A DNA stretch of 64,000 bases from an uncultured Chloroflexia bacterium (lineage in GTDB: Bacteria > Chloroflexota > Limnocylindria > Limnocylindrales > CSP1-4): contig CAVVNQ010000004.1 of the NCBI GenBank assembly GCA_963749705.1, positions 86,454 through 150,453 on the forward strand, written 5' to 3'. Below are positions 19,999 to 44,666 of the stretch, one piece after another (within the stretch, counting starts at the first letter, position 1; each line of letters starts with the position of its first letter). A program made the position numbers and the translations under genes. The notes under the pieces are model-generated. The model made no database searches. It was given only the letters and a program-made list of their open reading frames with translations, and was not told the DNA's origin.

Positions 19999-21369
19999 AT
20001 GGCTGATCACGACGGCCACCTTTCCGTCACGCGCCGCCAGGTGCTCAAGGGAGGCGCTGCTGTCGCGGCGCTGGGCGGAGTCTCCGCCTTCCTCGCGGCC
20101 TGCGGCTCCGCGGGCGCGACCACGGCGCCCCCGGCCTCGTCAACCGCACCGGCTGCGTCTGCTGCCCCGCCCGAGTCCATGGCCCCGGTCACGGGCAGCC
20201 TGACGTTCGGGTCGAACTACTCCGACCAGGTCCCCAAGGACGCGATGCAGGCCGTCGTCGACGCCTTCACCGCGAAGACGAGCATCACCGTCAACGTCAA
20301 CACGGTCGAGCACGGCAAGTTCCAGGACACGATCAACGCGTACCTGCAGGCGACACCGGACGATGCGTTCACCTGGTTCGCCGGCTACCGGATGCAGTTC
20401 TTCGCCGCCCAGGGCCTGGCCCTCGATATCAGCGACGTCTGGAGTCAGGTCGGCTCGAACTTCACCGACCCCATCAAGGCCGCCTCGACCGGCGCCGACG
20501 GCAAGCAGTACTTCGTCCCGTTCTACAACTACCCGTGGGGCGTCGCGTACCGGAAGAGCTTCTTCACCGAGAAGGGCTACACGGTCCCCAAGACACTCAG
20601 CGAGTTCACGGCGCTTGGCGACAAGATGAAGGCCGATGGGCTCATCCCGCTCGCGTTCGGCGATAAGGACGGCTGGCCCGCGATGGGCACGTTCGACATC
20701 CTCAACATGCGGATGAACGGCTACGACTACCACATCGGGCTCATGGCCGGCAAGGAGAAGTGGACGGACGCGAAGACCAAGGCCGTGTTCCAGAAGTGGG
20801 CGGAGCTGCTCCCCTACTTCGATCCGCAACCGTTGGGCAAGACCTGGCAGGAGGCCTGCCAGGACATGCTCAGCAATAAGGCCGGCATGTACTTCCTCGG
20901 CACCTTCCTGGGCGAGCAGGCAACCGACCCGGCTGTCCATGACGATCTGGACATGTTCCCGTTCCCGGTCTTCGGGAACGAGTACGACAGCGAGATGGCG
21001 ATCGACGCCCCGATCGACGGGTTCATGGTGGCCGCGAAGGCGGTCAACGTGGACCAGGCGAAGGCGTTCCTGGAGTACCTGGCGACCGGCGAGGCCGAGG
21101 GCATCTTCCTCAAGTCGAGCCCCAACAACGTGTTTGTCGGCAAGGACGGCGACACGAGCACCTACACGGCGTGGCAGACGACGGCGGCTGGGATCCTCGC
21201 CGGATCCAACAAGCTCGCCCAGTTCATGGACCGGGACACCAGGCCGGACTTCGCGGGCGCGAACGGGATGCAGGGGTTCATCCAGAACTTCCTGGGCGAC
21301 CCGTCGCAGGACCTGGACAAGTTCCTGTCCGGCATCCAGGACTTCTACGACAGCCTGCCGCCGCAGTGA
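19999..21369 (+). CDS. Sugar ABC transporter substrate-binding lipoprotein (family 1 SBP; TAT signal)
   Basis: TRRQVLKG twin-arginine motif and LAACG lipobox; GGAGGAGG ribosome-binding site; extracellular solute-binding fold similarity. Confidence 0.8.
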   Translation: MADHDGHLSVTRRQVLKGGAAVAALGGVSAFLAACGSAGATTAPPASSTAPAASAAPPESMAPVTGSLTFGSNYSDQVPKDAMQAVVDAFTAKTSITVNVNTVEHGKFQDTINAYLQATPDDAFTWFAGYRMQFFAAQGLALDISDVWSQVGSNFTDPIKAASTGADGKQYFVPFYNYPWGVAYRKSFFTEKGYTVPKTLSEFTALGDKMKADGLIPLAFGDKDGWPAMGTFDILNMRMNGYDYHIGLMAGKEKWTDAKTKAVFQKWAELLPYFDPQPLGKTWQEACQDMLSNKAGMYFLGTFLGEQATDPAVHDDLDMFPFPVFGNEYDSEMAIDAPIDGFMVAAKAVNVDQAKAFLEYLATGEAEGIFLKSSPNNVFVGKDGDTSTYTAWQTTAAGILAGSNKLAQFMDRDTRPDFAGANGMQGFIQNFLGDPSQDLDKFLSGIQDFYDSLPPQ

Positions 21370-21400
21370 TCACCAGCTGAGGCCAACGAACGAGCGCCCC

Positions 21401-22411
21401 ATGACGCAGTCCGTTCCGCAGAGCGCCCCGCCGGCCAGCACCGGCGGGGCGTCCCTGTCCCAGGGCCCATCGGCCACGGGTCCGCGTCGCTCACGGCGGC
21501 GGTTCAGCCTGCTCACGCGTCGCGACAAGGTGACCCTGGCGCTCATGGTCGGGATCCCGGCCTTCATCCACATCTTCCTGATCTGGCTGCCGACCCTGGG
21601 CTCGATCATCCTGTCATTCACCGACTGGAACGGCATCGGCGGGCTGGACAAGATCAAGTTCGTCGGGCTCAAGAACTACGACACTCTGGTCAACCTCTAC
21701 CAGCCGTTCTGGCCTGCGCTCCAGAACAACATCATCTGGCTGGTGGTGTTCCTGTTCATCGCCACGCCGCTGGGCATGCTGATGGCCGTGATCCTGGACC
21801 AGAACATCCGGGGCACCCGGATCTACCAGAGCGTGCTGTACATGCCGGTCGTGCTGTCACTGGCGATCGTCGGCTTCATCTGGGAGCTGATCTACTCCCC
21901 CGGCCAGGGGTTCATCAACAACATGCTGGTCCTGGTCACCGGCGACCAGCGGTGGGTCACATCGGGCACCACGATCGACTGGCTGGGGACCCGCGGGCTC
22001 AACTTCGCCGCCGTGATGGTCGCCGCCAGCTGGCGCCACGTCGGCTACATCATGGTCCTCTACCTGGCGGGGCTGAAGAGCGTGGACAACACACTCCGGG
22101 AGGCGGCCTCGATCGACGGTGCGAACGCCCGCCAGACGTTCTTCCGGGTGGTGTTCCCGGTCCTCGCGCCGATCAACGTCGTGGTCCTGGTGGTGACCGT
22201 GATCGAGTCGCTGCGCGCGTTCGACATCGTGTACATCATCAACAAGGGCCTCAACGGCCTCGGTCTGCTGTCGGTCCTGATCACCACGAACCTGCTGGGT
22301 GAGGCGAGCCTGGTCGGGTTCGGGTCCGCGATCGCGGTGATCCTGCTGCTGATCTCGATCGGCCCGATCAGCTTCTACCTGTACCGGGTGCTGCGCGAGG
22401 AGCCGGCGTGA
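21401..22411 (+). CDS. Sugar ABC transporter permease (MalF/UgpA-type)
   Basis: Six-transmembrane MalF-like permease with an EAA-type loop region. Confidence 0.85.
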   Translation: MTQSVPQSAPPASTGGASLSQGPSATGPRRSRRRFSLLTRRDKVTLALMVGIPAFIHIFLIWLPTLGSIILSFTDWNGIGGLDKIKFVGLKNYDTLVNLYQPFWPALQNNIIWLVVFLFIATPLGMLMAVILDQNIRGTRIYQSVLYMPVVLSLAIVGFIWELIYSPGQGFINNMLVLVTGDQRWVTSGTTIDWLGTRGLNFAAVMVAASWRHVGYIMVLYLAGLKSVDNTLREAASIDGANARQTFFRVVFPVLAPINVVVLVVTVIESLRAFDIVYIINKGLNGLGLLSVLITTNLLGEASLVGFGSAIAVILLLISIGPISFYLYRVLREEPA

Positions 22412-23310
22412 CCGCGGCCACGCTCCCGCACGCCCAGGCCACCGTCGCCAGGAAGAAGGGGCGTCGGCCGAAGTACGGCACCCACGCGTTCCTGATCGCG
22501 ATGTGCGTGCTGTGGATCTTCCCGCTCGCGTGGACGATCTACACCGCGTTCCGGCCCTACGGCGAGACGGCCCGGCTGGGCTACGTGTCGGTCGGCGGTG
22601 CCTACAACCTCGACAACTTCTTCAACGCCGCCAAGGGGATGGACCTGTGGCTGCACCTGTTCGACACGCTGATCGTGGTCGTGCCGGCGATGATCCTGGT
22701 CCTGTTCTTCGCGTCCATGATCGCGTTCGCGGTGTCGCGCTACAGCTTCCGGTTCAACGTCGCGATGCTGATGCTGTTCACGGCCGGCAACCTGCTGCCC
22801 CAGCAGGTCGTGATCACCCCGCTGTACCGGATGTACCTCGCGCTGCCGCTGTTCTCGCCGCTGGCCGACCGCGGGATCTGGTACGACACGTTCTTCGGGA
22901 TGATCGCGATCCATATTGCGTTCCAGCTCGGGTTCTGCACGTTCGTGCTGTCCAACTACTTCAAGCAGGTTCCCAAGGAGATCAACGAGGCGGCAGTGAT
23001 GGACGGGGCGTCCGTGTGGAAGACCTACTGGTCCGTGCTCCTGCCGCTCACCCGCCCGGCGCTGGCGGCGCTTGCCACGCTCGAGTTCACATGGATCTAC
23101 AACGACTTCTTCTGGGGCCTCCTGCTCATGCGGACGGGCGCCAAGTTCCCGATCACCCCGGCCCTCAGCCAGCTGTCGGGCCAGTTCTTCACCGACAACA
23201 ACCTGCTCGCGGCGGGGGCGCTTCTCGTTGCGTTGCCGACGCTGATCGTGTACTTCGCGCTCCAGAAGCACTTCGTCGCCGGCCTGACCCTGGGCTCGAC
23301 CAAGGGCTGA
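22408..23310 (+). CDS. Sugar ABC transporter permease (MalG/UgpE-type)
   Basis: ATGA overlap with the upstream permease; EAA loop EAAVMDGASVWKTYWSVLLPL. Confidence 0.85.
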   Translation: MTAATLPHAQATVARKKGRRPKYGTHAFLIAMCVLWIFPLAWTIYTAFRPYGETARLGYVSVGGAYNLDNFFNAAKGMDLWLHLFDTLIVVVPAMILVLFFASMIAFAVSRYSFRFNVAMLMLFTAGNLLPQQVVITPLYRMYLALPLFSPLADRGIWYDTFFGMIAIHIAFQLGFCTFVLSNYFKQVPKEINEAAVMDGASVWKTYWSVLLPLTRPALAALATLEFTWIYNDFFWGLLLMRTGAKFPITPALSQLSGQFFTDNNLLAAGALLVALPTLIVYFALQKHFVAGLTLGSTKG

Positions 23311-23356
23311 CATGCGACCCCCGGCCACCTGGGCCGGGTCGAGGAGGAACCGCACG

Positions 23357-26300
23357 ATGTCGCCCGCGCCGTGGGCCGACCCGGAGCTGACCGGCCGTGG
23401 CCGGCTGCCGATGCATGCCGTCCCCCACCTCGACCGGCTCGAGCTCGACGGGACCTGGCGGTTCCAGCTGCTCCACCGGCCGGACGATCCGGTCGGCGAC
23501 GGCGACTCCTGGCGCGAGATCGACGTCCCGGGTTGCTGGACGATGCAGGACACCTGGGATGGCCCGATCTACACCAACGTCCAGATGCCGTTCCCCGACC
23601 GGCCGCCGGCCACGCCCGAGGAGAACCCGACGGGCGTCTACGAGCGCTCGTTCGAGGTGCCGGCCGCGTGGGCGGACCGTCGGATCGTGCTCCACGTCGG
23701 AGCTGCAGAGAGCGTGCTCGTCGCGCAGCTCAACGGCGTCGAGGTGGGCATCAGCAAGGACTCGCACCTGGCCGCCGAGTTCGAGATCAGCGGCCTGGCT
23801 GCGACCGGGCGCCAACGACCTGCGGCTGACCGTCGTCAAGTGGTCCGACGCGTCGTTCATCGAGGACCAGGACCAGTGGTGGCACGGCGGGATCACCCGC
23901 TCTGTGTTCCTGTACGCGACCGGTCCGGTGCATCTGGCCGATCTCCGAATCGACACCGGGCTGGACCCGGATCTCGCGACCGGGACGCTGGAGCTCGAGG
24001 TCGCGCTGGGCTGGCCCGATGGCTCGGCGCTGGAGCCCGGCTGGCTGGTGGAGGCCGCGATCGAGGGCGTCGCGGCGCCGCTGGTCGCGGTCGTGCCGGA
24101 CGCACCCACGGCCGATCGCGGTCCGGGCGCGTTCGTGGTGCCGGGGCCGCCCCGGCGCGGGATCCTCGACCTCCAAAGCCTCAACGCATCGGGCACGCTC
24201 ACCGACCCGGAGGACCAGGCGCGATGGCGGGAGGCGGAAGCGGTGGTCCGGCCGCCCCGCGTCGGCCGCGCACGGCTCGGCGCCCGGATCGACGGCGTGA
24301 CGCCGTGGTCCGCGGAGGTGCCCGCGCTGCGGACGCTGAGCGTCGTACTCCGCGCGCCGGACGGCAAGGTCACGGAGCGGATCGAGCGCCCGATCGGCTT
24401 CCGGCGGATCGAGGTTCGCGGTGTCGAACTGCTGGTCAACGGGCGGGCCGTGCTCATCCGCGGCGTCAACCGCCACGACTTCGACCGCCGGACCGGAAGG
24501 GTGGTGTCGGCCGAGGACATGCTCGCCGATGTGATCGCGATGAAGCGGTGGGGCTTCAACGCGCTGCGCACCTCGCATTACCCCAACGACCCGTACCTGC
24601 TCGACGTGTGCGACGAGCTGGGGCTGTACGTCATCGACGAGGCGGACATCGAGTCCCACGGCTGGTACGACGACGTGTGCCACGACCCTCGCTACCGGGC
24701 GGCGTTCGTGGACCGGGTCGCGCGGATGATCGAACGCGACCGGCACCACCCCTCGATCATCTCCTGGTCGCTGGGCAACGAATCGGGCTACGGCGCCAAC
24801 CATGACGCGGCCGCCGGCTGGGCGCGTAGGGCGGACCCCTCGCGGCCGCTCCACTACGAGGGCGCGATCCGGTTCGACTGGACCAGCGCCCAGACGGCGA
24901 GCGACCTCACCTGCCCGATGTACCCGCCCATCTCGGCGATCGTCGCGCACGCCCGGTCAGGCCTCCAGCGGCACCCGCTGATCATGTGCGAGTTCAGCCA
25001 CGCGATGGGCAACAGCAACGGCACGCTGGCCGAGCACTGGGACGCGATCGAGGCCACGCCCGGGCTCCAGGGCGGGTTCATCTGGGAGTGGCGCGACCAC
25101 GGCCTCGACCAGCTGCTGCCCGACGGGACGGTGCGCGCCGCCTACGGCGGCGACTTCGGCGACGTGCCCAACGACGGGACGTTCGTGCTCGACGGGATGG
25201 TGTTCCCGGACCGGCGGCCAAAGCCCGCGATGTTCGAGCACATGCACCTCGCGTCTCCGGTCCGGGCCGCGACCGACGACACCGCCATCGCCGCCGCGCG
25301 CGAGGGACGAGCCGCCCTCGAGAACCGGGGCGAGTTCCGCGACAACGGCTGGCTGCGCGCCACCTGGGAGGTGACCGTCGACGGCGAGCCGGTCACCGGC
25401 GGCGACCTGCCGCTGCCCTCGATCGCCCCGGGTGACCGGGCCGAGGTGACCATCCCCGGCTGGCGCCTGCCACCGGAGGGCGGCGAACGCTGGCTCACCC
25501 TGCGGTTCCTGACCGCCGACGCCACCGGATGGGCGCCGGCGGGCCACGAGATGGGCTGGGCACAGGTGCCGCTCGATGCGGCAACCGGGCCCGGCGCCGC
25601 CGCCTCGACGGCGGCGGGCTGGACCGGCGGCGTCGTCCTGAACGAAGCGGGGCAGCTCCTCCTCCCCGCGTTCGCGGCGCCGCCGGCCCTGTCCCTGTGG
25701 CGGGCGCCCACCGACAACGACCGGATCGGCGGCATGGCGCAGCGCTGGGCCGGCTGGGGACTGGCGAGCCTGACCCGTCGCCTGGAGAGCATCGAGCGCG
25801 CGGCCGATGCGGTGACGGTCCGGTCGACGTGGACGACCGGGACCGGGATCGAGCTGGCGCACGTCCAGCGGATGGCGGTCGCGCCCGACGGCCGGATCCG
25901 TGTCGATGAGGCGGTCGAGGTGCCGGCGATCCTCGACGACCTGCCGCGGGTGGGGACCGTGCTCGAGCTGGCCGCCGGCCACGAGGACCTCGAATGGTTC
26001 GGTCGCGGGCCGCACGAGACGTACCCCGACCGCCGGCGCGGCGGGCAGGTCGGCCGATGGCGGTCGACGGTGACGGACGCGGCGACGCGCTACCTGCGGC
26101 CGCAGGAGAACGGCGGGCACGCCGACACGCGCTGGCTGCGCATCTCCGGACGCGGCGCCGGGGTCCGGCTCGACCTCGACCGGCCGCGCCAGGTCTCGGT
26201 CACGCACCTGCGGGCGGTCGACCTCGACGCGGCGGCCCATGACGACGAGCTGCGACCGTGCCCCGAGACGATCGTCCATCTCGATGCCGCGCATCGTGGC

Positions 26301-37608: not shown

Positions 37609-37641
37609 GCACATATGAGCATTGATGTACGCACATGAGCA
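37609..37641. promoter_or_regulatory. Direct repeat GCACAT(AT)GAGCA x2 with 22-bp periodicity straddling the regulator start codon; candidate SorC-family operator
   Basis: Copies at 37609-37621 and 37631-37641, immediately downstream of the predicted -10. Confidence 0.35.
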
Positions 37642-38650
37642 ACGCGGGGCGCGCGTGACGACCGTCGCTGCCCCGGTTCGCGGCGCCTCGGATCCGCGCC
37701 TGCTCGTTCGCGTCGCGCGGATGTACTACGGCATGGCGCTGACCCAGGAGGAGATCGGCGCGAGGCTCGGTCTGAGCCGGTTCAAGGTCGGCAGGCTGCT
37801 GGACCGGGCGGTCCGCGAGTCGATCGTGCGGATCGAGATCGTCCACCCCGCCGCCCGGCTGGTCGAGATCGAGGAGCAGCTGGTCGCCCGCTTCGGGCTG
37901 CGCGCGGCGGTCGTCGCCGACGCCGGGTCCGGTCCGGTCACCGCGGAGGGGTCGGTCGAGGCCGCGACCGCCGTCGCGCGGGAGGCGGTGGCCAGGGCTG
38001 CCGCCCGGTATCTCGCCGAGATCCGACCGACGGGCGCGATCGGCGTGTCGTGGGGCCGGACGATGCTCGAGCTGGCCCGTGCCCTGGAGCCGGGCTGGAC
38101 GACCGCGACCGAGATCGTCCAGCTCAACGGGGCGACGTCACGCTCGGCGACGCCGACGCGTGCCGGCGAGATCGTGGACCGGTTCGGGGTCACCAGCGGC
38201 GGATCGATCCGGCTCATGCCCGCGCCGGCGATCGTGGGGTCGGCCGCGCTGCGGACCGCGCTCGAGGCGGACCCGTCCGTGGGCGACACGCTGCAGGCGG
38301 CCCGGCGGGCGCCGTTCGCCGTGTTCAGCCTCGGCATCCCGGAGCCCGGCAGCGTCCTCGTGGAGTCCGGGTTCGTGGCGCCCGCGGACCGGAAGCTCCT
38401 GCGCCGGGCGGGCGCGGTCGGCGACATCCTGGGCCGGTTCCTCGCACCCGACGGCCGGATCGCGCTGCCGGACCTCGACCAGCGCACGGTCGGCCTGCCG
38501 CTCGACGAGCTCGCGGCCAAGGACCACACCATCGGGCTCGCCGCCGGACCCGGTCGCGGTCCCATCGCGCTCGCGGCCATCCGCGCGGGCTGCGTGAACA
38601 CCCTGATCACCGACGAAGGAACGGCTGACTGGCTGGTTGCGCATGGCTGA
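37625..38650 (+). CDS. SorC/DeoR-type sugar-phosphate-binding transcriptional regulator
   Basis: N-terminal HTH ARMYYGMALTQEEIGARLGLSRFKVGRLL and a C-terminal sugar-binding domain; first gene of the BMC operon. Confidence 0.8.
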   Translation: MYAHEQRGARVTTVAAPVRGASDPRLLVRVARMYYGMALTQEEIGARLGLSRFKVGRLLDRAVRESIVRIEIVHPAARLVEIEEQLVARFGLRAAVVADAGSGPVTAEGSVEAATAVAREAVARAAARYLAEIRPTGAIGVSWGRTMLELARALEPGWTTATEIVQLNGATSRSATPTRAGEIVDRFGVTSGGSIRLMPAPAIVGSAALRTALEADPSVGDTLQAARRAPFAVFSLGIPEPGSVLVESGFVAPADRKLLRRAGAVGDILGRFLAPDGRIALPDLDQRTVGLPLDELAAKDHTIGLAAGPGRGPIALAAIRAGCVNTLITDEGTADWLVAHG

Positions 38651-39266
38651 GCCGCGGATCCGCCCCACCGAGCAGGACGTGCGGGACGTGGTCCGGCGCA
38701 TCGTCGACGCCGTGTACGTACCCTCGGCCACGGTCGCCCCGACGACGGCGGCCGCACACATCGATGCCGGGGCCGCCGACGGGCAGCGTCCGTCCTCCAT
38801 CGCCATCGGCGCCGACCATGGCGGCTTCCGGCTCAAGGAGCAGCTCCGGCAGGCGCTGGCCGAGCGCGGCCACGCGGTCCACGACTGCGGGACCGGCAGC
38901 GAGGACGCGGTCGACTACCCGGATCTCGCGCTGGCCGTCGCGAAGCTGGTCGCCGACGGCACGTGCAGCGTCGGGATCGTCGTGGACGGCGCCGGCATCG
39001 GCTCGTGCATGGCCGCCAACAAGGTGCCCGGCGTACGCGCCGCCATGTGCTACGACCTCTCAACGGCACGCAACAGCCGCGAGCACAATCACGCCAACGT
39101 GCTCACGCTCGGGGCGCGGCTCATCGGCGCCGGGCTTGCGCTCGACATCGTGACCGAGTGGCTGGCCACGCCCTGGGGGCCGGGTCGCCACGCGGCCCGC
39201 GTCGACAAGATCACCGCCATCGAGCGGCACTACCTGAAGGACGGCACCGGGGTTGGGACGCGATGA
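38643..39266 (+). CDS. rpiB: Ribose-5-phosphate isomerase B-like sugar-phosphate isomerase with an N-terminal amphipathic-helix extension (candidate encapsulation peptide)
   Basis: RpiB/LacAB core [10 protein letters not shown]...[10 protein letters not shown]. The about 55-aa N-terminal extension contains the amphipathic helix [16 protein letters not shown] followed by a Pro/Ala/Thr linker. Overlaps the regulator's end by 8 nt. Confidence 0.75.
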
Positions 39267-40129
39267 CGACGATCGATGACCGGGACCTGCTGATCGAGAC
39301 GATCACGCGGGAGGTGCTGGCGACGTTCTCGCTGGGCGGCGAGACGTGCATCAACTGCGGCGGGTCGTGCGCCGCGCATTGCGCGGACAAGGTCCGCGAC
39401 GTCGTGACCAACGGCGCCAGCCGGATCGCGTACCACGGCCGGGGCAGCGACGTGCCGCTGGACCTCGCCGGCTACATCGACCACACCCTGCTCCGCCCCG
39501 ACGCCACCGCGGCCGACATCGACCGCCTGTGCGCGGAGGCCGTCGAGCACCACTTCGCGGCGGTGTGCATCAACCCCACCTGGATCCGACGCGCGGCGGA
39601 CAACGTGCGCGGGACCGATGTCGCGGTCGCCTCGGTGATCGGCTTCCCGTTCGGCGCCGCGACGACCGAGGTCAAGGCCATGGAGGCGCGCCGCGCCATC
39701 CGCGACGGGGCGCGCGAGATCGACATGGTGATCAACATCGGGGCGCTCAAGAGCGGCATGCTGGACGCGGTCCGCGAGGACATCGATCGCGTCTCCGACG
39801 CATGCCACGAGTCCGGGGCCCTCAACAAGGTGATCATCGAGACCGCGCTCCTCACCGACGAGGAGAAGGTCATCGCGTGTCACCTCGCGAAGGAGGCCAA
39901 GGCTGACTTCGTCAAGACCTCCACCGGCTACGCCTCGGGTGGCGCGACCGTGTTCGACGTCGCCCTCATGCGCGAGGCGGTGGGCTCACGGATGGGCGTC
40001 AAGGCCTCGGGCGGGATCCGTACCGCCGAGGATGTCCAGGACATGATCGCCGCCGGCGCCACCCGGATCGGGGCCTCCGCCGGCGTCAAGATCGTCACAG
40101 GAGAGAGGGGAGCGCGTGAGCAATATTGA
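39263..40129 (+). CDS. deoC: Deoxyribose-phosphate aldolase (DeoC-like class I aldolase) with an N-terminal encapsulation-peptide-like extension
   Basis: DeoC core (Schiff-base lysine region [24 protein letters not shown]) preceded by an about 60-aa extension containing the amphipathic [15 protein letters not shown]; ATGA overlap with rpiB. Confidence 0.8.
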
Positions 40130-40745
40130 CCTTCGCGCCTATGTCTTCCTCGACAGCCTCCAGGCGCAGTACGCCGCGTTCCTGGGGACCGTCGCGCAGG
40201 GGTTCCTGCCGCTGGCCGGCGATGCGTCGCTGTCGATCGAGGTGTCGCCGGGCATCGAGATCAACCGGCTGACGGACATCGCCCTCAAGTCCACCTCGGT
40301 CAAGCCGGGGATGCAGATCATCGAGCGCTACTACGGCATGCTCGAGGTCCACTCCCCCTCGCAGGCGGAGGTCCGGGCGGCCGGGGCGGCCATCCTGCGC
40401 GAGATCGGGCTCGAGGAGACGGACCGGATCAAGCCCCGGATCCTGTCCAGCCAGATCATCCGCCGCATCGACGATCACCAGGCGCAGCTGATCAACCGCA
40501 CCCGCCACGGCCAGATGCTGATCCCGGGCGAGACGCTGTACGTGCTCGAGCTCGAGCCCGCGGCCTACGCGGCCCTCGCCGCCAACGAGGCGGAGAAGGC
40601 GGCCCACATCAACATCCTCGAGGTCCGCTCGTTCGGCTCGATGGGCCGGATCTACCTGGGCGGCGAGGAACGGGACATCGACGTCGGCTGGCGCGCGGCG
40701 CTGGCCTCGATCGAGGGCCTCGACGGCCGCGAGGCCAAGAGCTGA
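40116..40745 (+). CDS. BMC-T shell protein, tandem circularly permuted BMC-domain type (PduB/EutL-like)
   Basis: About 209 aa with two repeated halves, each having a G-x-L-x-V/I hydrophobic beta-strand followed by a helix ([24 protein letters not shown]; [25 protein letters not shown]); GTG start after a GGAGAGAGGGGAG ribosome-binding site. Confidence 0.55.
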
Positions 40746-40791
40746 CACCCACCACCAATACCGGCAATCACAACGGCGAAGGAGAGGATCG

Positions 40792-41100
40792 ATGGCTGAA
40801 GCACTGGGCATGATCGAGGCGCGCGGGTTCGCCGCGATGGTCGAGGCGGCCGACGCGATGGTCAAGGCGGCCAAGGTCGAGCTGGTGAGCTACGAGAAGA
40901 CCGGCGGCGGCTACGTGACCGCGGTCGTGCGCGGTGACGTCGCGGCGGTCAAGGCGGCCGTCGAGGCGGGCGTCCGGGCCGCCACCAAGGTCGGCGAGGT
41001 GGTCACCAGCCACGTCATCGCGCGGCCGCACAGCAACGTGGACCTCGTCCTCCCGCTCGGTCGTGCCGAGCAGGCCAAGGGCGAGAAGGGCGACGACTGA
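40792..41100 (+). CDS. BMC-H hexameric shell protein (PduA/EutM/CcmK family)
   Basis: Canonical [29 protein letters not shown]...[23 protein letters not shown]; strong AAGGAGAGG ribosome-binding site. Confidence 0.9.
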
Positions 41101-41158
41101 CGTTCGCACCAGGGGCCGCGGTCGCAGCGCGATCGCGGCCCGGACCCGGGAGGAAGCC

Positions 41159-41446
41159 ATGCTCCTTGGACGGGTGGCCGGAACGGTCGTCTCCAGCCGC
41201 AAGGAACCGCTGATCGAGGGCTGGAAGCTGCTCCTCGTGCGCCAGCTCGACACCGACAACCACGAGGGCGGCGGCTACGTCGTCGCCGCCGACGCCGTGG
41301 GCGCCGGGGTGGGCGAGGTCGTCCTGTACGCGACGGGCAGCTCCGCGCGCCAGACCGAGATGACCAGGGATCGACCGTGCGACGCCGTGATCATGGCGAT
41401 CGTCGACACCTGGGAGGTCGGCGGTCGTGAGATCTATCGGAAGTAG
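41159..41446 (+). CDS. BMC-P pentameric vertex protein (EutN/CcmL/PduN family), paralogue 1
   Basis: [31 protein letters not shown]...[10 protein letters not shown] typical of EutN/CcmL. Confidence 0.85.
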
Positions 41447-41449
41447 CCG

Positions 41450-42910
41450 ATGAGCGACCTCAGCGAGCGCGACATCCAGGACATCATCGAGCGCGTCAGG
41501 CGGCGGATCGACGCCGCCTCCGAGGGCCGGGTGGGCACGGCGCTGCGCGCCGAGGCCGAGCTGGCCGCCGCGCCCACCGAGCTGGGCGACGGGATCCACG
41601 CCACGATCGACGACGCGGTCGCGGCGGCCACCGGCGCGTTCCGCGAGTTCCAGTCCATGGGCCTCGACGGGCGGCGGGTGATCATCGAGGCGATCCGGCA
41701 GTCGATGCTCGACCACGCGGAGCAGCTCGCGCGGATGGCCCATCAGGAGACGCACCTCGGGCGGTACGAGGACAAGGTCGTCAAGAACCGCCTGGTGACG
41801 ATGAAGGCGGCGGGCCCCGAGGACCTCGAGGTCGAGGCGGTGTCCGGCAGCCTGGGCATGATGGTCACGGAGTGGGCGCCGTTCGGTGTCGTGGCCGCGA
41901 TCACGCCGGTCACCAACCCGACCTCCACGGTGATCAACAACACGATCAGCATCGTGTCCGCCGGCAACGCGGTCGTGTTCAACGCCCACCCCAACGCGAA
42001 ACGAAGCTCCGCGGAGACGATCCGCCTGATCAACCGCGCGATCGTCGGCGCCGGCGGCCCGTCGGACCTGGTGACCGCGATCGTGGAGCCGACGATCGAC
42101 AGCGCCCGGGCCCTGATGAGCCACCCCGGCGTCCGGGTGCTGCTGGTCACCGGTGGTCCGGGCGTCGTCCGCGAGGCGCTGCGGACCGACAAGCGGGCGA
42201 TCACGGCCGGCCCCGGCAACCCGCCCGCGGTGGTCGACCAGACGGCGGACGTCGAGCGCGCGGGCCGCGACATCGTGCGCGGCGCGTCGTTCGACAACAA
42301 CATCATCTGCACCGACGAGAAGGTCGTGCTGGTCGTGGACTCGGTCGCGGACCGGCTGATCCGCGCGATGACCCACAACGGCGCCTACCTGCTCAAGGAG
42401 CACGAGCTCCGACGCCTGGAGCGGGTGATCTTCCGGGAGCTCGGCGAGCCGGGCAAGCCCGGCGTCATCAACCCCGCCTGGATCGGCCGCGACGCCGCGA
42501 AGATCCTGGCCGAGATCGGGGTCAGCGTGGAGCCCGAGCCGCGGCTGCTGATCGCGGAGGTGCCGCGGGATCACAGCCTGGTGTGGACCGAGCAGATGAT
42601 GCCGGTGCTCCCCGTGGTGCGGGTCGGGACCGTCGACCAGGCGATCGACCTCGCCGTCCGAGCCGAGCATGGGTTCCGGCACACCGCGTCGATCCACTCG
42701 ACCAACGTGGACACGATCACGCGCATGGCCCGGGCCATGAACTGCAGCATCTTCGTGGCCAACGGACCCAACTTCGCGGGGCTGGGCGAGGGCGGCGAGG
42801 GGTTCTCGTCGTTCTCCATCGCCTCCCCCACCGGCGACGGCCTGACCCGGCCGCGGACCTTCTCGCGCGAGCGGCGGATCACCGTCGTCGGCGCGCTCCG
42901 GATCGTCTGA
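41450..42910 (+). CDS. CoA-acylating aldehyde dehydrogenase (PduP/EutE family) with an N-terminal encapsulation peptide
   Basis: ITPVTNPTSTVINN, catalytic FDNNIICTDEK and MAHQETHLG motifs; the N-terminal amphipathic DIQDIIERVRRRI matches a PduP-type encapsulation peptide. Confidence 0.85.
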   Translation: MSDLSERDIQDIIERVRRRIDAASEGRVGTALRAEAELAAAPTELGDGIHATIDDAVAAATGAFREFQSMGLDGRRVIIEAIRQSMLDHAEQLARMAHQETHLGRYEDKVVKNRLVTMKAAGPEDLEVEAVSGSLGMMVTEWAPFGVVAAITPVTNPTSTVINNTISIVSAGNAVVFNAHPNAKRSSAETIRLINRAIVGAGGPSDLVTAIVEPTIDSARALMSHPGVRVLLVTGGPGVVREALRTDKRAITAGPGNPPAVVDQTADVERAGRDIVRGASFDNNIICTDEKVVLVVDSVADRLIRAMTHNGAYLLKEHELRRLERVIFRELGEPGKPGVINPAWIGRDAAKILAEIGVSVEPEPRLLIAEVPRDHSLVWTEQMMPVLPVVRVGTVDQAIDLAVRAEHGFRHTASIHSTNVDTITRMARAMNCSIFVANGPNFAGLGEGGEGFSSFSIASPTGDGLTRPRTFSRERRITVVGALRIV

Positions 42911-42912
42911 CC

Positions 42913-43503
42913 ATGCAGCCGGCCATCGCCCTGCTCGAGCTCGACTCGATCGCCGTCGGGATCGAGACCGGCGATGCGATGGCCAAGCGCTCCCCCATCG
43001 ACGTCATCTACGCCGGGACCGTCCACCCCGGCAAGTACCTGGTGCTCGTGGGCGGGGCGGTCGCGGACGTCGAGGAGGCGCTCGAGGCCGGGCGCGCCGT
43101 CGGCGGACCATCGATCCTCGACGTCGTCCTGCTCCCGGACGTCCATCCCCAGGTGGTGGCCGCGATCCGCGGCACCCGGCGAGCATCTTCGGGCGAGGCA
43201 CTGGGGATCATCGAGACCCAGACGGTGGCCGCGATCATCGATGCGGCCGACGCCGGGGTGAAGGGCGCGCGGGTCCGGCTGCTCGAGCTTCGCCTCGCCG
43301 ACGGCATCGGCGGCAAGGCGTACCTGCTGTTCGGCGGCGGCGTAGCCGATGTCGAGGCGGCGGTCGAGCTTGGCCGCGACCGGATCGGCGCCGCCGCGCG
43401 CTCGATCTCCCGCGTGATCCCCCAGCTCCATGGCGAGATGCGCGTCAACCTCGAGGCCGACTCCCGGTTCCGCGACCGGATTGCCGCTCGAGAGGACGCC
43501 TGA
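42913..43503 (+). CDS. BMC-T shell protein, standard tandem BMC-domain type (PduT-like; no Cys for an Fe-S site)
   Basis: Two PF00936-like domains (IALLELDSIAVGIETGDAMAKRSPIDVI; ALGIIETQTVAAIIDAADAGVKGARVRLLEL). Confidence 0.75.
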   Translation: MQPAIALLELDSIAVGIETGDAMAKRSPIDVIYAGTVHPGKYLVLVGGAVADVEEALEAGRAVGGPSILDVVLLPDVHPQVVAAIRGTRRASSGEALGIIETQTVAAIIDAADAGVKGARVRLLELRLADGIGGKAYLLFGGGVADVEAAVELGRDRIGAAARSISRVIPQLHGEMRVNLEADSRFRDRIAAREDA

Positions 43504-43504
43504 G

Positions 43505-43885
43505 ATGCAGCTCGCGCGGGTCATCGGCACCGTCGTGGCGACGATCAAGTCGCCCGGGCTCGAGGGCGTCCCGCTGCTGATCGTGCAGCCGCTCGACCGG
43601 CGGCAGCAGGCCGAGGGGACGCCGGTCGTCGCCGCGGACGCGGTCCGGATGGCCGGACCCGGCGAGCTCGTGTACATCGTCGCCGCCCGCGAGGCGTCGC
43701 TCGCCCTGGACGAGCCGTTCGTACCGGTCGACCATGCGATCGTGGGCATCGTGGACGCGGTCGCCACCGATGGGGAGCGCGACCCACGCGGAACCGGCGA
43801 ACCACGCGGAGCGGGGGCGCCATCCGCCGGCCATCCCGCGACGCGCCGGAAGCGGGCGCCGTCACGCGGAAGGGGCACGCCATGA
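43505..43885 (+). CDS. BMC-P vertex protein, paralogue 2, with a basic Arg/Pro-rich C-terminal tail of about 40 aa
   Basis: MQLARVIGTVVATIKSPGLEGVPLLIVQPLD core; tail ATDGERDPRGTGEPRGAGAPSAGHPATRRKRAPSRGRGTP. Confidence 0.8.
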   Translation: MQLARVIGTVVATIKSPGLEGVPLLIVQPLDRRQQAEGTPVVAADAVRMAGPGELVYIVAAREASLALDEPFVPVDHAIVGIVDAVATDGERDPRGTGEPRGAGAPSAGHPATRRKRAPSRGRGTP

Positions 43886-44229
43886 AGCTCGCGCGGGTGG
43901 TCGCCACGGTCACCTCGACGATCAACGTGCCGCTGTTCGACGGCCGCAAGCTGCTGCTGTGCGACCTGCTCGATCCTGAGGGCGCCGACGCGGGCGGGTA
44001 CCTGATCGCCGTCGACACCGTGGGTGCCGGCCCGGGCGAGACGGTGCTGCTCATGGACGAAGGGAACTCCGCGCGCCAGATCCTGGACGCGCGGGACGCG
44101 CCGGTCCGCACGCTGGTGGTGGGGATCGTCGACGCGGTGGAGCTCGCGAAGCCGGTGGGCGATGCGTCGACGGTGGCGCGGCGCACGCCCAACCGCGCTC
44201 GACCCGCACGCCGCCGCGCGGCCGAATGA
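43882..44229 (+). CDS. BMC-P vertex protein, paralogue 3
   Basis: MKLARVVATVTSTINVPLFDGRKLLLCDLLD...YLIAVDTVGAGPGE; ATGA overlap. Confidence 0.8.
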   Translation: MKLARVVATVTSTINVPLFDGRKLLLCDLLDPEGADAGGYLIAVDTVGAGPGETVLLMDEGNSARQILDARDAPVRTLVVGIVDAVELAKPVGDASTVARRTPNRARPARRRAAE

Positions 44230-44666
44230 CCCCGGACGACGGGGTCCCCCGGCGCGTCCGCCTTGCCGCCTACGCGTGGATCGAGGACGACGGGCGGGTG
44301 GTCCTGGTCCGTGTCGCCGCCGGGTCGCCGGGAGCCGGCGAGTGGACGCTGCCCGGGGGCGGGCTCCGGTTCGGGGAGGACCCGGTCGACGGCGTCGTCC
44401 GCGAGGTGGCCGAGGAGACCGGCCTGACGGTCAGGGTCGGCAGCCTCGTCGCGGTCCGATCGACCGTGCTCGAGCCCGGGGAGACGCCGAGCGGCGACCG
44501 AATCCACGCGGTCGGGCTCGTGTACCGGGCGAGCGCCGACGACGGCGAGCTTCGCCACGAGGCTGACGGATCCACCGACATGGCGGCGTGGATCTCGTTC
44601 GACGAGCTCGATGCGCTCGCGTCGGCGCGGCTGCTGCGCTGGGCGCGGAGCGTGGTTGGTCGATGA
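44226..44666 (+). CDS. NUDIX hydrolase
   Basis: Nudix box GGGLRFGEDPVDGVVREVAEETGL; ATGA overlap with the last BMC-P gene. Confidence 0.8.
   Translation: MTPDDGVPRRVRLAAYAWIEDDGRVVLVRVAAGSPGAGEWTLPGGGLRFGEDPVDGVVREVAEETGLTVRVGSLVAVRSTVLEPGETPSGDRIHAVGLVYRASADDGELRHEADGSTDMAAWISFDELDALASARLLRWARSVVGR

Follow-up and report, generated by a model that had tools for sequence, protein, structure and literature searches.

Bacterial microcompartments (BMCs) of the sugar-phosphate-utilising (SPU) kind were first named in 2014, and by 2021 more than 280 SPU loci were known across 26 phyla. Here, the subject is the cargo part of one SPU operon, which lies in a 64,000-nucleotide stretch of DNA (the whole of which is called the window) from an uncultured Chloroflexia bacterium (Limnocylindrales; CSP1-4; assembly GCA_963749705.1, contig CAVVNQ010000004.1, positions 86,454-150,453). 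Three enzymes are encoded there: an RpiB-like protein, which is the ribose-5-phosphate isomerase (RPI) of the SPU literature; DERA, the product of deoC; and a CoA-acylating aldehyde dehydrogenase (AldDH). A preliminary description of this DNA took the N-terminal segments of all three to be encapsulation peptides. Coordinates below are positions in the window, and all features lie on the + strand.

The closest described type is SPU3 (Sutter et al., 2021, Supplementary Data 2). Its cargo consists of an AldDH, a pfam01791 protein and a pfam02502 protein, with N-terminal peptides listed for the AldDH and the pfam01791 member. Its shell has one BMC-H, a triplet of BMC-P proteins, a CcmP-like BMC-Tdp, and a BMC-Ts that comes without PduS or a pore cysteine. 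SPU3 hosts include Chloroflexi and Actinobacteria (Sutter et al., 2021).

Biochemistry exists for a single SPU system, the SPU6 type of Chloroflexi bacterium GWB2_54_36 (Dwyer, Sutter and Kerfeld, 2024; PMC11585597). According to that study, every SPU DERA bears ~70 extra residues at its N-terminus, a helix with low-confidence strands, which non-BMC DERA does not have. The SPU RPI has “a typical N-terminal EP” followed by an unstructured linker. In SPU6 the AldDH peptide stands at the C-terminus, in all other subtypes at the N-terminus.

The locus in the window is best explained as the cargo region of an SPU3 operon in a high-GC Chloroflexota genome (the window DNA is ~72% G+C). Open reading frames, Pfam and NCBIfam together delimit a compact BMC operon at 37.6-44.2 kb, and the last two give its gene order as Reg-RPI-DERA-Tdp-H-P-AldDH-Ts-P-P. 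The enzymes are those of SPU3 (AldDH, the pfam01791 DERA and the pfam02502 RPI), with the RPI gene immediately upstream of the DERA gene. The shell set is also that of SPU3; the BMC-Ts of the window contains no cysteine at all, and PduS is absent from 37.6-44.7 kb. The locus is syntenic with many SPU3-like loci, 16 of them singled out here, from Chloroflexota, Acidimicrobiia, Acidobacteriota and other phyla. The loci of Anaerolineae have the distinct SPU6 arrangement. The nearest relatives are metagenome-assembled genomes of Chloroflexota, “Chloroflexi bacterium RBG_16_72_14” among them.

Within this operon, each of the three cargo enzymes carries an N-terminal extension (51 residues in the RpiB-like protein, 65 in DERA, ~47 in AldDH), and each extension opens with an amphipathic helix. 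This central observation is real but ordinary; because peptides on SPU DERA, RPI and AldDH were all reported by Dwyer, Sutter and Kerfeld (2024), it is already known. The explanation that best covers the locus as a whole, to which a probability of roughly 85% may be given, has four parts: an SPU3 cargo operon, helices that serve as encapsulation peptides, an RPI-like protein that acts as an adaptor, and a DERA extension that is a module specific to DERA.

That an extra segment precedes the catalytic core in all three proteins is evident from two comparisons. The Pfam domains begin far downstream of the start codon (LacAB_rpiB at aa 53, DeoC at aa 71, Aldedh at aa 50), and solved structures first align at aa 49-53 of the RpiB-like protein, at aa 66-68 of DERA and, for the truncated BMC aldehyde dehydrogenase 4c3s, at aa 44 of AldDH. 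The peptides quoted in the preliminary description are present exactly, at aa 10-25, aa 8-22 and (as DIQDIIERVRRRI) aa 8-20, respectively. The window holds no paralogue of RpiB, DeoC or AldDH; thus, the comparison with non-BMC proteins was drawn from other genomes and from Protein Data Bank (PDB) entries. There, the extensions are missing from the non-BMC DeoC proteins of five loci, which start ~5-10 residues ahead of the IDHT motif, and from all solved RpiB and DERA structures. The supposition that the extensions are specific to BMC proteins therefore held in this comparison.

An encapsulation peptide is, by the usual definition, a short amphipathic helix of 15-20 residues, joined to its enzyme through a linker of low conservation and limited to encapsulated homologues (Kinney et al.; Aussignargues et al., 2015, PMC4594438). 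The limitation to BMC homologues was found for the RpiB-like protein and DERA in the comparison above. The linker is poorly conserved in the RpiB-like protein and in AldDH, and partly so in DERA, where a conserved module of cysteines and a helix stands between linker and core. As for the helix itself, AlphaFold2 predicts one in the RpiB-like protein and one in DERA, the latter at low confidence (pLDDT), and that of AldDH is indicated by periodicity and conservation.

Amphipathicity was evaluated as the hydrophobic moment of 14-residue segments, with shuffled sequences giving the chance level. The moment is 0.82 in the RpiB-like protein (p 0.01) and 0.89 in AldDH (p 0.005), in each case the top segment of the entire protein. 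In DERA it is 0.49 (p 0.25). The same measure gives 0.61, 0.76 and 0.47 for the tags of EutC, PduD and PduP, which have been used in experiments (sequences from PMC5405515). All three helices are thus within or above the range of validated tags, with that of DERA at the low end, close to PduP. The signal is clearly above chance for the RpiB-like protein and AldDH; the case for DERA rests on conservation, not on the moment. The hydrophobic periodicity that had been attributed to all three segments is clear in two of them and marginal in DERA. Taken together, these sequence properties support the view that the extensions would behave as elements of the encapsulation-peptide type.

The helices of the RpiB-like protein and AldDH conform to the simple pattern. 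Over 52 homologues of the RpiB-like protein, the majority residue accounts for a mean fraction of 0.71 in the helix and 0.34 in the linker, and the linker varies from 21 to 43 residues; in the AlphaFold2 model, built with 52 homologues, the core begins at aa 52. In SPU3-like loci, the N-terminal part of AldDH has the conserved motif (D/E)xEIQxIIERVRRRV, with a variable linker after it. Its nearest solved relatives are the BMC aldehyde dehydrogenases 5jfl and 4c3s, and its C-terminus (...GALRIV) has no tail. In SPU6-like loci of Anaerolineae, the AldDH has the C-terminal peptide ...PxEIExVVRxVVxEIL, reproducing the published feature of SPU6.

The extension of DERA is more than a helix. That the protein is a class I DERA is plain from its family model and its active site. 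In the E. coli enzyme, the catalytic residues, with the Schiff-base Lys among them, are D102, K167 and K201. Their counterparts here, D154, K218 and K247, are invariant, and their spacing of 64 and 29 residues equals that of the published Chloroflexi residues D165, K229 and K258 (PMC11585597). Ahead of this core stands a conserved module of 65 residues: a first helix, a variable linker, up to four cysteines, and then a second helix with a strand. Helix 1 is found in SPU3-like and SPU6-like loci, and is missing in non-BMC DeoC. The Gly/Ala-rich linker after it spans 5-34 residues with a conservation of 0.42. AlphaFold2 leaves aa 23-41 unstructured and models the helices of the extension at a low pLDDT of ~50-60; a short join links the segment with helix 2 and strand to the barrel. 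Thus, the notion that DERA simply bears an encapsulation helix is supported as to the conserved helix 1 and fell short as to the remainder.

The module recurs widely, always on the same enzyme. It is carried by 120 close homologues and is present in 71 of 80 genomic loci. When its profile was searched against 1.84 billion representative proteins, 104 hits were obtained, and every hit inspected was a DERA, an RPI-DERA fusion in which the module is internal, or a frameshifted gene call. Since nothing else appeared among these, other cargo does not share the module. The internal position fits a published observation on RPI-DERA fusions, whose seeming “linker” is a structural element of DERA (PMC11585597).

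One further protein, not encoded in the window, surfaced as a weak match to the same profile. This metagenomic protein of 179 residues has five tandem helices resembling encapsulation peptides (ALVEAIKR[E/D]VLA...), split by Gln/Pro-rich linkers, and its sequence looks like that of a multivalent scaffold.

Against the PDB, the profile of the DERA extension finds a weak and non-significant match of the segment with helix 2 and strand to designed TIM-barrel repeat units (E ~0.002), and the cysteine cluster has no match in that search. Within DERA itself, the top hit of the extension against the core aligns aa 41-55 (inside 39383-39436) with the C-terminal aa 255-269 (40025-40069) over 15 columns (hhalign P 0.0068, probability 5.7%). 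The segment with helix 2 and strand could be a duplicated alpha/beta unit of DERA, a resemblance that is suggestive, not significant.

It might be argued that the extension is primarily a metal-binding or redox-sensitive cysteine domain that regulates DERA or its assembly. Up to four cysteines fall within 12-16 residues, in three spacing classes that occur across phyla (Cx2Cx3Cx3C; Cx3Cx4Cx3C, in SPU6; Cx1Cx4Cx3C), and in the close homologues C29, C32 and C36 are invariant. The stretch past the variable linker is conserved, unlike the “poorly conserved linker” of an ordinary encapsulation peptide; the module is confined to DERA and its fusions; and a conserved motif of four cysteines occurs in a cargo extension of another BMC type. 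However, position 40 is Ser rather than Cys in many of the close homologues, and the AlphaFold2 confidence of the region is below 50. Among the 71 loci that bear the extension, at least four cysteines are present in 47, three in 4, two in 11, one in 2 and none in 7; because 7 loci manage with no cysteine and 11 with two, the cluster is dispensable. DERA from which the extension was deleted is, moreover, still active, dimeric and able to bind RPI (PMC11585597). In its main text, the 2024 paper is silent on these cysteines, on zinc and iron-sulfur, and on any metal or cofactor; the cluster is a minor point beyond the published account. A primarily regulatory cysteine domain is accordingly an unlikely description of the extension, if one worth keeping in view. 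The extension is a DERA-specific module, whatever the cysteines contribute to it.

The RpiB-like protein has an isomerase fold whose chemistry appears to be gone. In E. coli RpiB the catalytic base is Cys66, and Thr68 is the proton shuttle. The mechanism of these enzymes has the Cys as base, with the Thr passing the proton between O2 and O1 (PMC4783025). When the protein of the window is aligned with Clostridium thermocellum RpiB (3he8), the motif giviCgTglg becomes ivvDgAgig. The position of the Cys is Asp in 119 of 119 homologues matched, the full Asp-Gly-Ala is found in 59 of 59 RPI genes of related loci, and Ala117 is invariant in the alignment. Thus, neither the Cys nor the Thr is in place. 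A base of the kind used by M. tuberculosis RpiB, Glu75, is missing as well; in a comparison made by eye, the equivalent position holds Ser or Cys (GIGSC).

The rest of the active site tells a different story. Residues for substrate binding and ring opening (D58, H59, H148, N149, R182, H183, R186) are invariant, as are the further pocket residues D91-Y92-P93 and E194. Because the remaining phospho-sugar pocket is invariant and the protein scores above the cut-off of the rpiB equivalog model, RPI likely retains the ability to bind a ligand.

These same observations are what an active isomerase inside the shell, with Asp115 as base, would have in its favour, whether its substrate were ribose 5-phosphate (R5P) or some other sugar phosphate such as a triose or tetrose phosphate. 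The authors of the SPU6 study themselves left an alternative substrate open (PMC11585597), and a carboxylate does work as base in M. tuberculosis RpiB, albeit from a different position (PMC11585597, PMC4783025). Against it, both proton-transfer residues are replaced in all the RPI genes of related loci, and trypanosomatid RpiB is inactive when mutated to C69S or C69A (PMC4783025). The RPI of SPU6 has negligible R5P isomerase activity and instead forms a ~1:1 complex with DERA, for which a role in packaging the core was proposed (PMC11585597). Further, 2-deoxyribose 5-phosphate has no C2 hydroxyl, and to link R5P to DERA requires a transketolase (PMC11585597). An active isomerase is, on balance, improbable. 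The preliminary description had deduced from the peptide an isomerisation step inside the shell, and had called this unusual for metabolosomes; the step with R5P is unlikely and the unusual status finds no support. Most likely, to judge from the lost residues and the SPU6 precedent, the RpiB-like protein would be a packaging adaptor that binds DERA rather than a ribose-5-phosphate isomerase.

In 12 related loci, seven of them SPU3-like, the RPI has no amphipathic helix. It has instead an N-terminal segment of ~45 residues, “...VxxxPxGxxxxxxxGxxVTPLARxxAxERxIRL”, with weak similarity to the E3-binding (peripheral-subunit-binding) domain (Pfam E 0.003-0.08). The same cargo would then bear an N-terminal module of another kind.

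All of these arguments presume, of course, that the extensions are translated. The gene boundaries are those of an operon: the RpiB ATG at 38643 overlaps the stop of the regulator, the DeoC ATG at 39263 shares an ATGA with the stop of RpiB, and the AldDH ATG at 41450 lies 4 nt past a BMC-P stop and is preceded by GGAAG. The G+C content of third codon positions is 0.90, 0.97 and 1.00 in the extensions of RpiB, DeoC and AldDH, respectively, against 0.93-0.97 in the cores, with second positions near 0.5. Public assemblies contain identical full-length protein sequences, called for all three genes. The helices are conserved as amino acids in homologues down to ~50% identity, and the linkers beside them vary. 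In RBG_16_72_14, two close homologues, an RpiB-like entry of 155 residues and a DERA entry of 225 residues (OGO55340.1), are annotated without N-terminal extensions; they illustrate the mis-annotation of start sites noted in the literature, where database annotations are said frequently to miss SPU extensions and truncated entries are treated as the errors (PMC11585597). The idea that the extensions arise from mis-called start codons, with translation beginning past the helices, can draw on such truncated entries and on in-frame GTG codons (RpiB aa 13, 16 and 24; DeoC aa 18, 48 and 64; AldDH aa 28), but given the coding signal, the junctions, the conservation and the lack of any in-frame start between helix and core in RpiB, it has next to no chance of being right.

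A mechanism consistent with these features can be proposed. Deoxyribose 5-phosphate would enter the shell through the pores of BMC-H or of the CcmP-like protein. DERA would then yield glyceraldehyde 3-phosphate and acetaldehyde, and the acylating AldDH would trap the acetaldehyde as acetyl-CoA. The helices, following the SPU literature and precedents in the PDU and EUT systems, would act as encapsulation peptides, both for the coalescence of the cargo and for its attachment to the shell. The RPI-like protein would bridge DERA into the core.

Several points weigh against this reading. The targeting role of the helices is deduced from their sequence properties and from the PDU and EUT precedents. 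The DERA helix is moderately amphipathic and has low AlphaFold2 confidence, and that of AldDH is deduced from periodicity and conservation. The SPU6 protein for which activity and complex formation were measured is only ~50-55% identical to the RPI of the window, and the strict conservation of the pocket suggests that a purely structural role for RPI may be incomplete. Because the operon lacks a phosphotransacylase (PTAC), an alcohol dehydrogenase and PduS, the model leaves the recycling of NAD+ and CoA unexplained. A more speculative extension of the model would combine a DERA-specific assembly module with a segment like DERA's last alpha/beta unit, a metal-binding or redox-switching cysteine cluster that governs how cargo condenses, and an RPI with an intact pocket into SPU packaging that responds to ligand or redox state; this must be considered rather unlikely.

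Table 1. Features of the SPU3-type operon, with positions in the window.
Feature	Position	Strand	Evidence and remarks
SorC/DeoR-type transcriptional regulator	37622..38650	+	Pfam Sugar-bind 5.5e-49; stop overlaps RpiB start
RpiB-like protein (SPU RPI), 207 aa	38643..39266	+	Pfam LacAB_rpiB aa 53-190, 1.2e-52; TIGR01120 150.4, above cut-off 138.65
RpiB encapsulation-peptide helix (putative), aa 10-24	38670..38714	+	AlphaFold2 helix, pLDDT 71-81; top moment; conserved in 120 homologues
RpiB linker, Pro/Ala/Thr/Ser-rich, aa 25-51	38715..38795	+	AlphaFold2 pLDDT 34-47, no secondary structure
Asp115-Gly116-Ala117 in place of catalytic Cys-Gly-Thr	38985..38993	+	Alignment to C. thermocellum RpiB 3he8
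DERA (DeoC), 288 aa	39263..40129	+	TIGR00126 deoC 283 bits, above cut-off 117; catalytic core from ~aa 66
DERA helix 1 (encapsulation-peptide-like), aa 7-22	39281..39328	+	AlphaFold2 helix 4-22, pLDDT ~50-57; conservation 0.83
DERA cysteine cluster C29-x2-C32-x3-C36-x3-C40	39347..39382	+	Conservation 0.69; between the two helices
DERA helix 2 and putative strand, aa 41-58	39383..39436	+	AlphaFold2 helix 42-54; conservation 0.75
BMC-T(dp), CcmP-like	40116..40745	+	NCBIfam CcmP 340.3 bits, cut-off 340
BMC-H hexamer shell protein	40792..41100	+	Pfam BMC 4.1e-30
BMC-P pentamer protein 1	41159..41446	+	Pfam EutN_CcmL 1.7e-28
CoA-acylating AldDH, 486 aa, catalytic Cys287	41450..42910	+	NCBIfam PRK15398 618 bits
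AldDH encapsulation-peptide helix (putative), aa 6-21 (ERDIQDIIERVRRRID)	41465..41512	+	Moment 0.89, p 0.005; helix suggested by periodicity and conservation
AldDH linker, aa 22-47	41513..41590	+	Sequence and length vary among SPU3-like loci; alignment with 4c3s starts at aa 44
BMC-T(s), tandem-domain shell protein, no Cys	42910..43503	+	Two Pfam BMC domains 1.3e-32; PduT-like 101 bits, under cut-off
BMC-P pentamer protein 2	43505..43885	+	Pfam EutN_CcmL aa 1-84; basic Arg/Gly/Pro-rich C-terminal tail ~40 aa
BMC-P pentamer protein 3	43882..44229	+	Pfam EutN_CcmL aa 1-84; basic C-terminal tail ~30 aa

The other genes of the operon are given in Table 1. The top NCBIfam model for the regulator is the Bacillus-type DeoR, at 211 bits and under the cut-off of 420. 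The BMC-T(dp) is 68-96% identical to its counterparts in syntenic SPU3-like loci. In BMC-P proteins 2 and 3, the EutN domain is followed by an Arg/Gly/Pro-rich tail (43763-43885 and 44140-44229, respectively) that is weakly conserved among relatives. A BMC-P with positively charged disordered tails has been described, in a preprint, from archaeal SPU-like compartments.

Downstream, the start of a Nudix hydrolase gene (44226-44666) forms an ATGA overlap with the stop of the last BMC-P gene, so that it is apparently translationally coupled to the operon. The gene is not conserved beside related SPU3 loci; a homologue occurs in one of them only (L002), elsewhere in the locus. The Nudix hydrolase, a pfkB kinase and an EamA transporter were considered as members of the system and rejected, since they are not conserved beside related loci. 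Scans of the window with Rfam and for transfer RNA genes returned no ribosomal RNA, transfer RNA or Rfam family. At 20001-24000, the G+C content falls to 0.65-0.67 from ~0.72-0.75 elsewhere; this stretch could have been acquired horizontally.

What, then, is learned from the locus? Encapsulation peptides are recognisable from raw sequence alone, even though the main point adds nothing new to SPU microcompartments, which the catalogues of 2014 and 2021 and the characterisation of 2024 already cover, the RPI peptide and the DERA extension included. One correction is of use to those who annotate genomes: the name “RpiB” should not be taken here to mean an isomerisation step, as both proton-transfer residues are gone and an adaptor is probable. 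For specialists, the points of interest are the recurrent but dispensable cysteine cluster of DERA, the invariant pocket of an RPI that looks inactive, and SPU3 loci without an enzyme for cofactor recycling.

The locus may, finally, be set beside the systems that it resembles. Like the validated peptides of the PDU and EUT systems (PduP 1-18, PduD 1-20, EutC 1-19), those described here are short N-terminal amphipathic helices with a linker, with moments of 0.49-0.89 against 0.47-0.76, and the RpiB helix resembles KQIEEIVRSVMASM of EutC in pattern. Unlike those, the SPU peptides stand on other cargo enzymes, their targeting role is assigned by analogy, and the DERA of SPU systems adds a conserved module after its helix.

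A second likeness is to peptide-bearing paralogues in BMCs that have turned from catalysis to scaffolding, such as the gamma-carbonic anhydrase (gamma-CA) domain of CcmM and the defunct AldDH copy of GRM1 (cited in PMC11585597). There, as in the RPI of the window, the fold is kept and the catalytic residues are lost; such a protein binds the signature enzyme, as the RPI probably does, and it carries or mediates encapsulation. The RPI of the window differs in that its pocket is invariant, suggesting that a ligand is bound; loss of activity has been measured in one SPU6 orthologue.

SPU6 shares with the locus the DERA extension (~70 residues there), the RPI peptide with its linker, the Asp that stands for the catalytic Cys, and the adjacency of RPI and DERA. 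On the other side, the AldDH of SPU6 is of another branch (30-36% identity), with its peptide at the C-terminus; the gene order is different; SPU6 has no BMC-Ts, and its Tdp is of a different clade. The cysteines of SPU6 DERA are spaced as Cx3Cx4Cx3C, or are only two in number, whereas those of the window follow Cx2Cx3Cx3C.

With SPU3 the agreement is closest. Both have N-terminal peptides on AldDH and DERA, and the RPI peptide, although not listed for SPU3 in the 2021 catalogue, is given for SPU RPI generally in the 2024 paper (PMC11585597). Here the regulator is a SorC/DeoR-type protein, and no essential difference separates this locus from SPU3.

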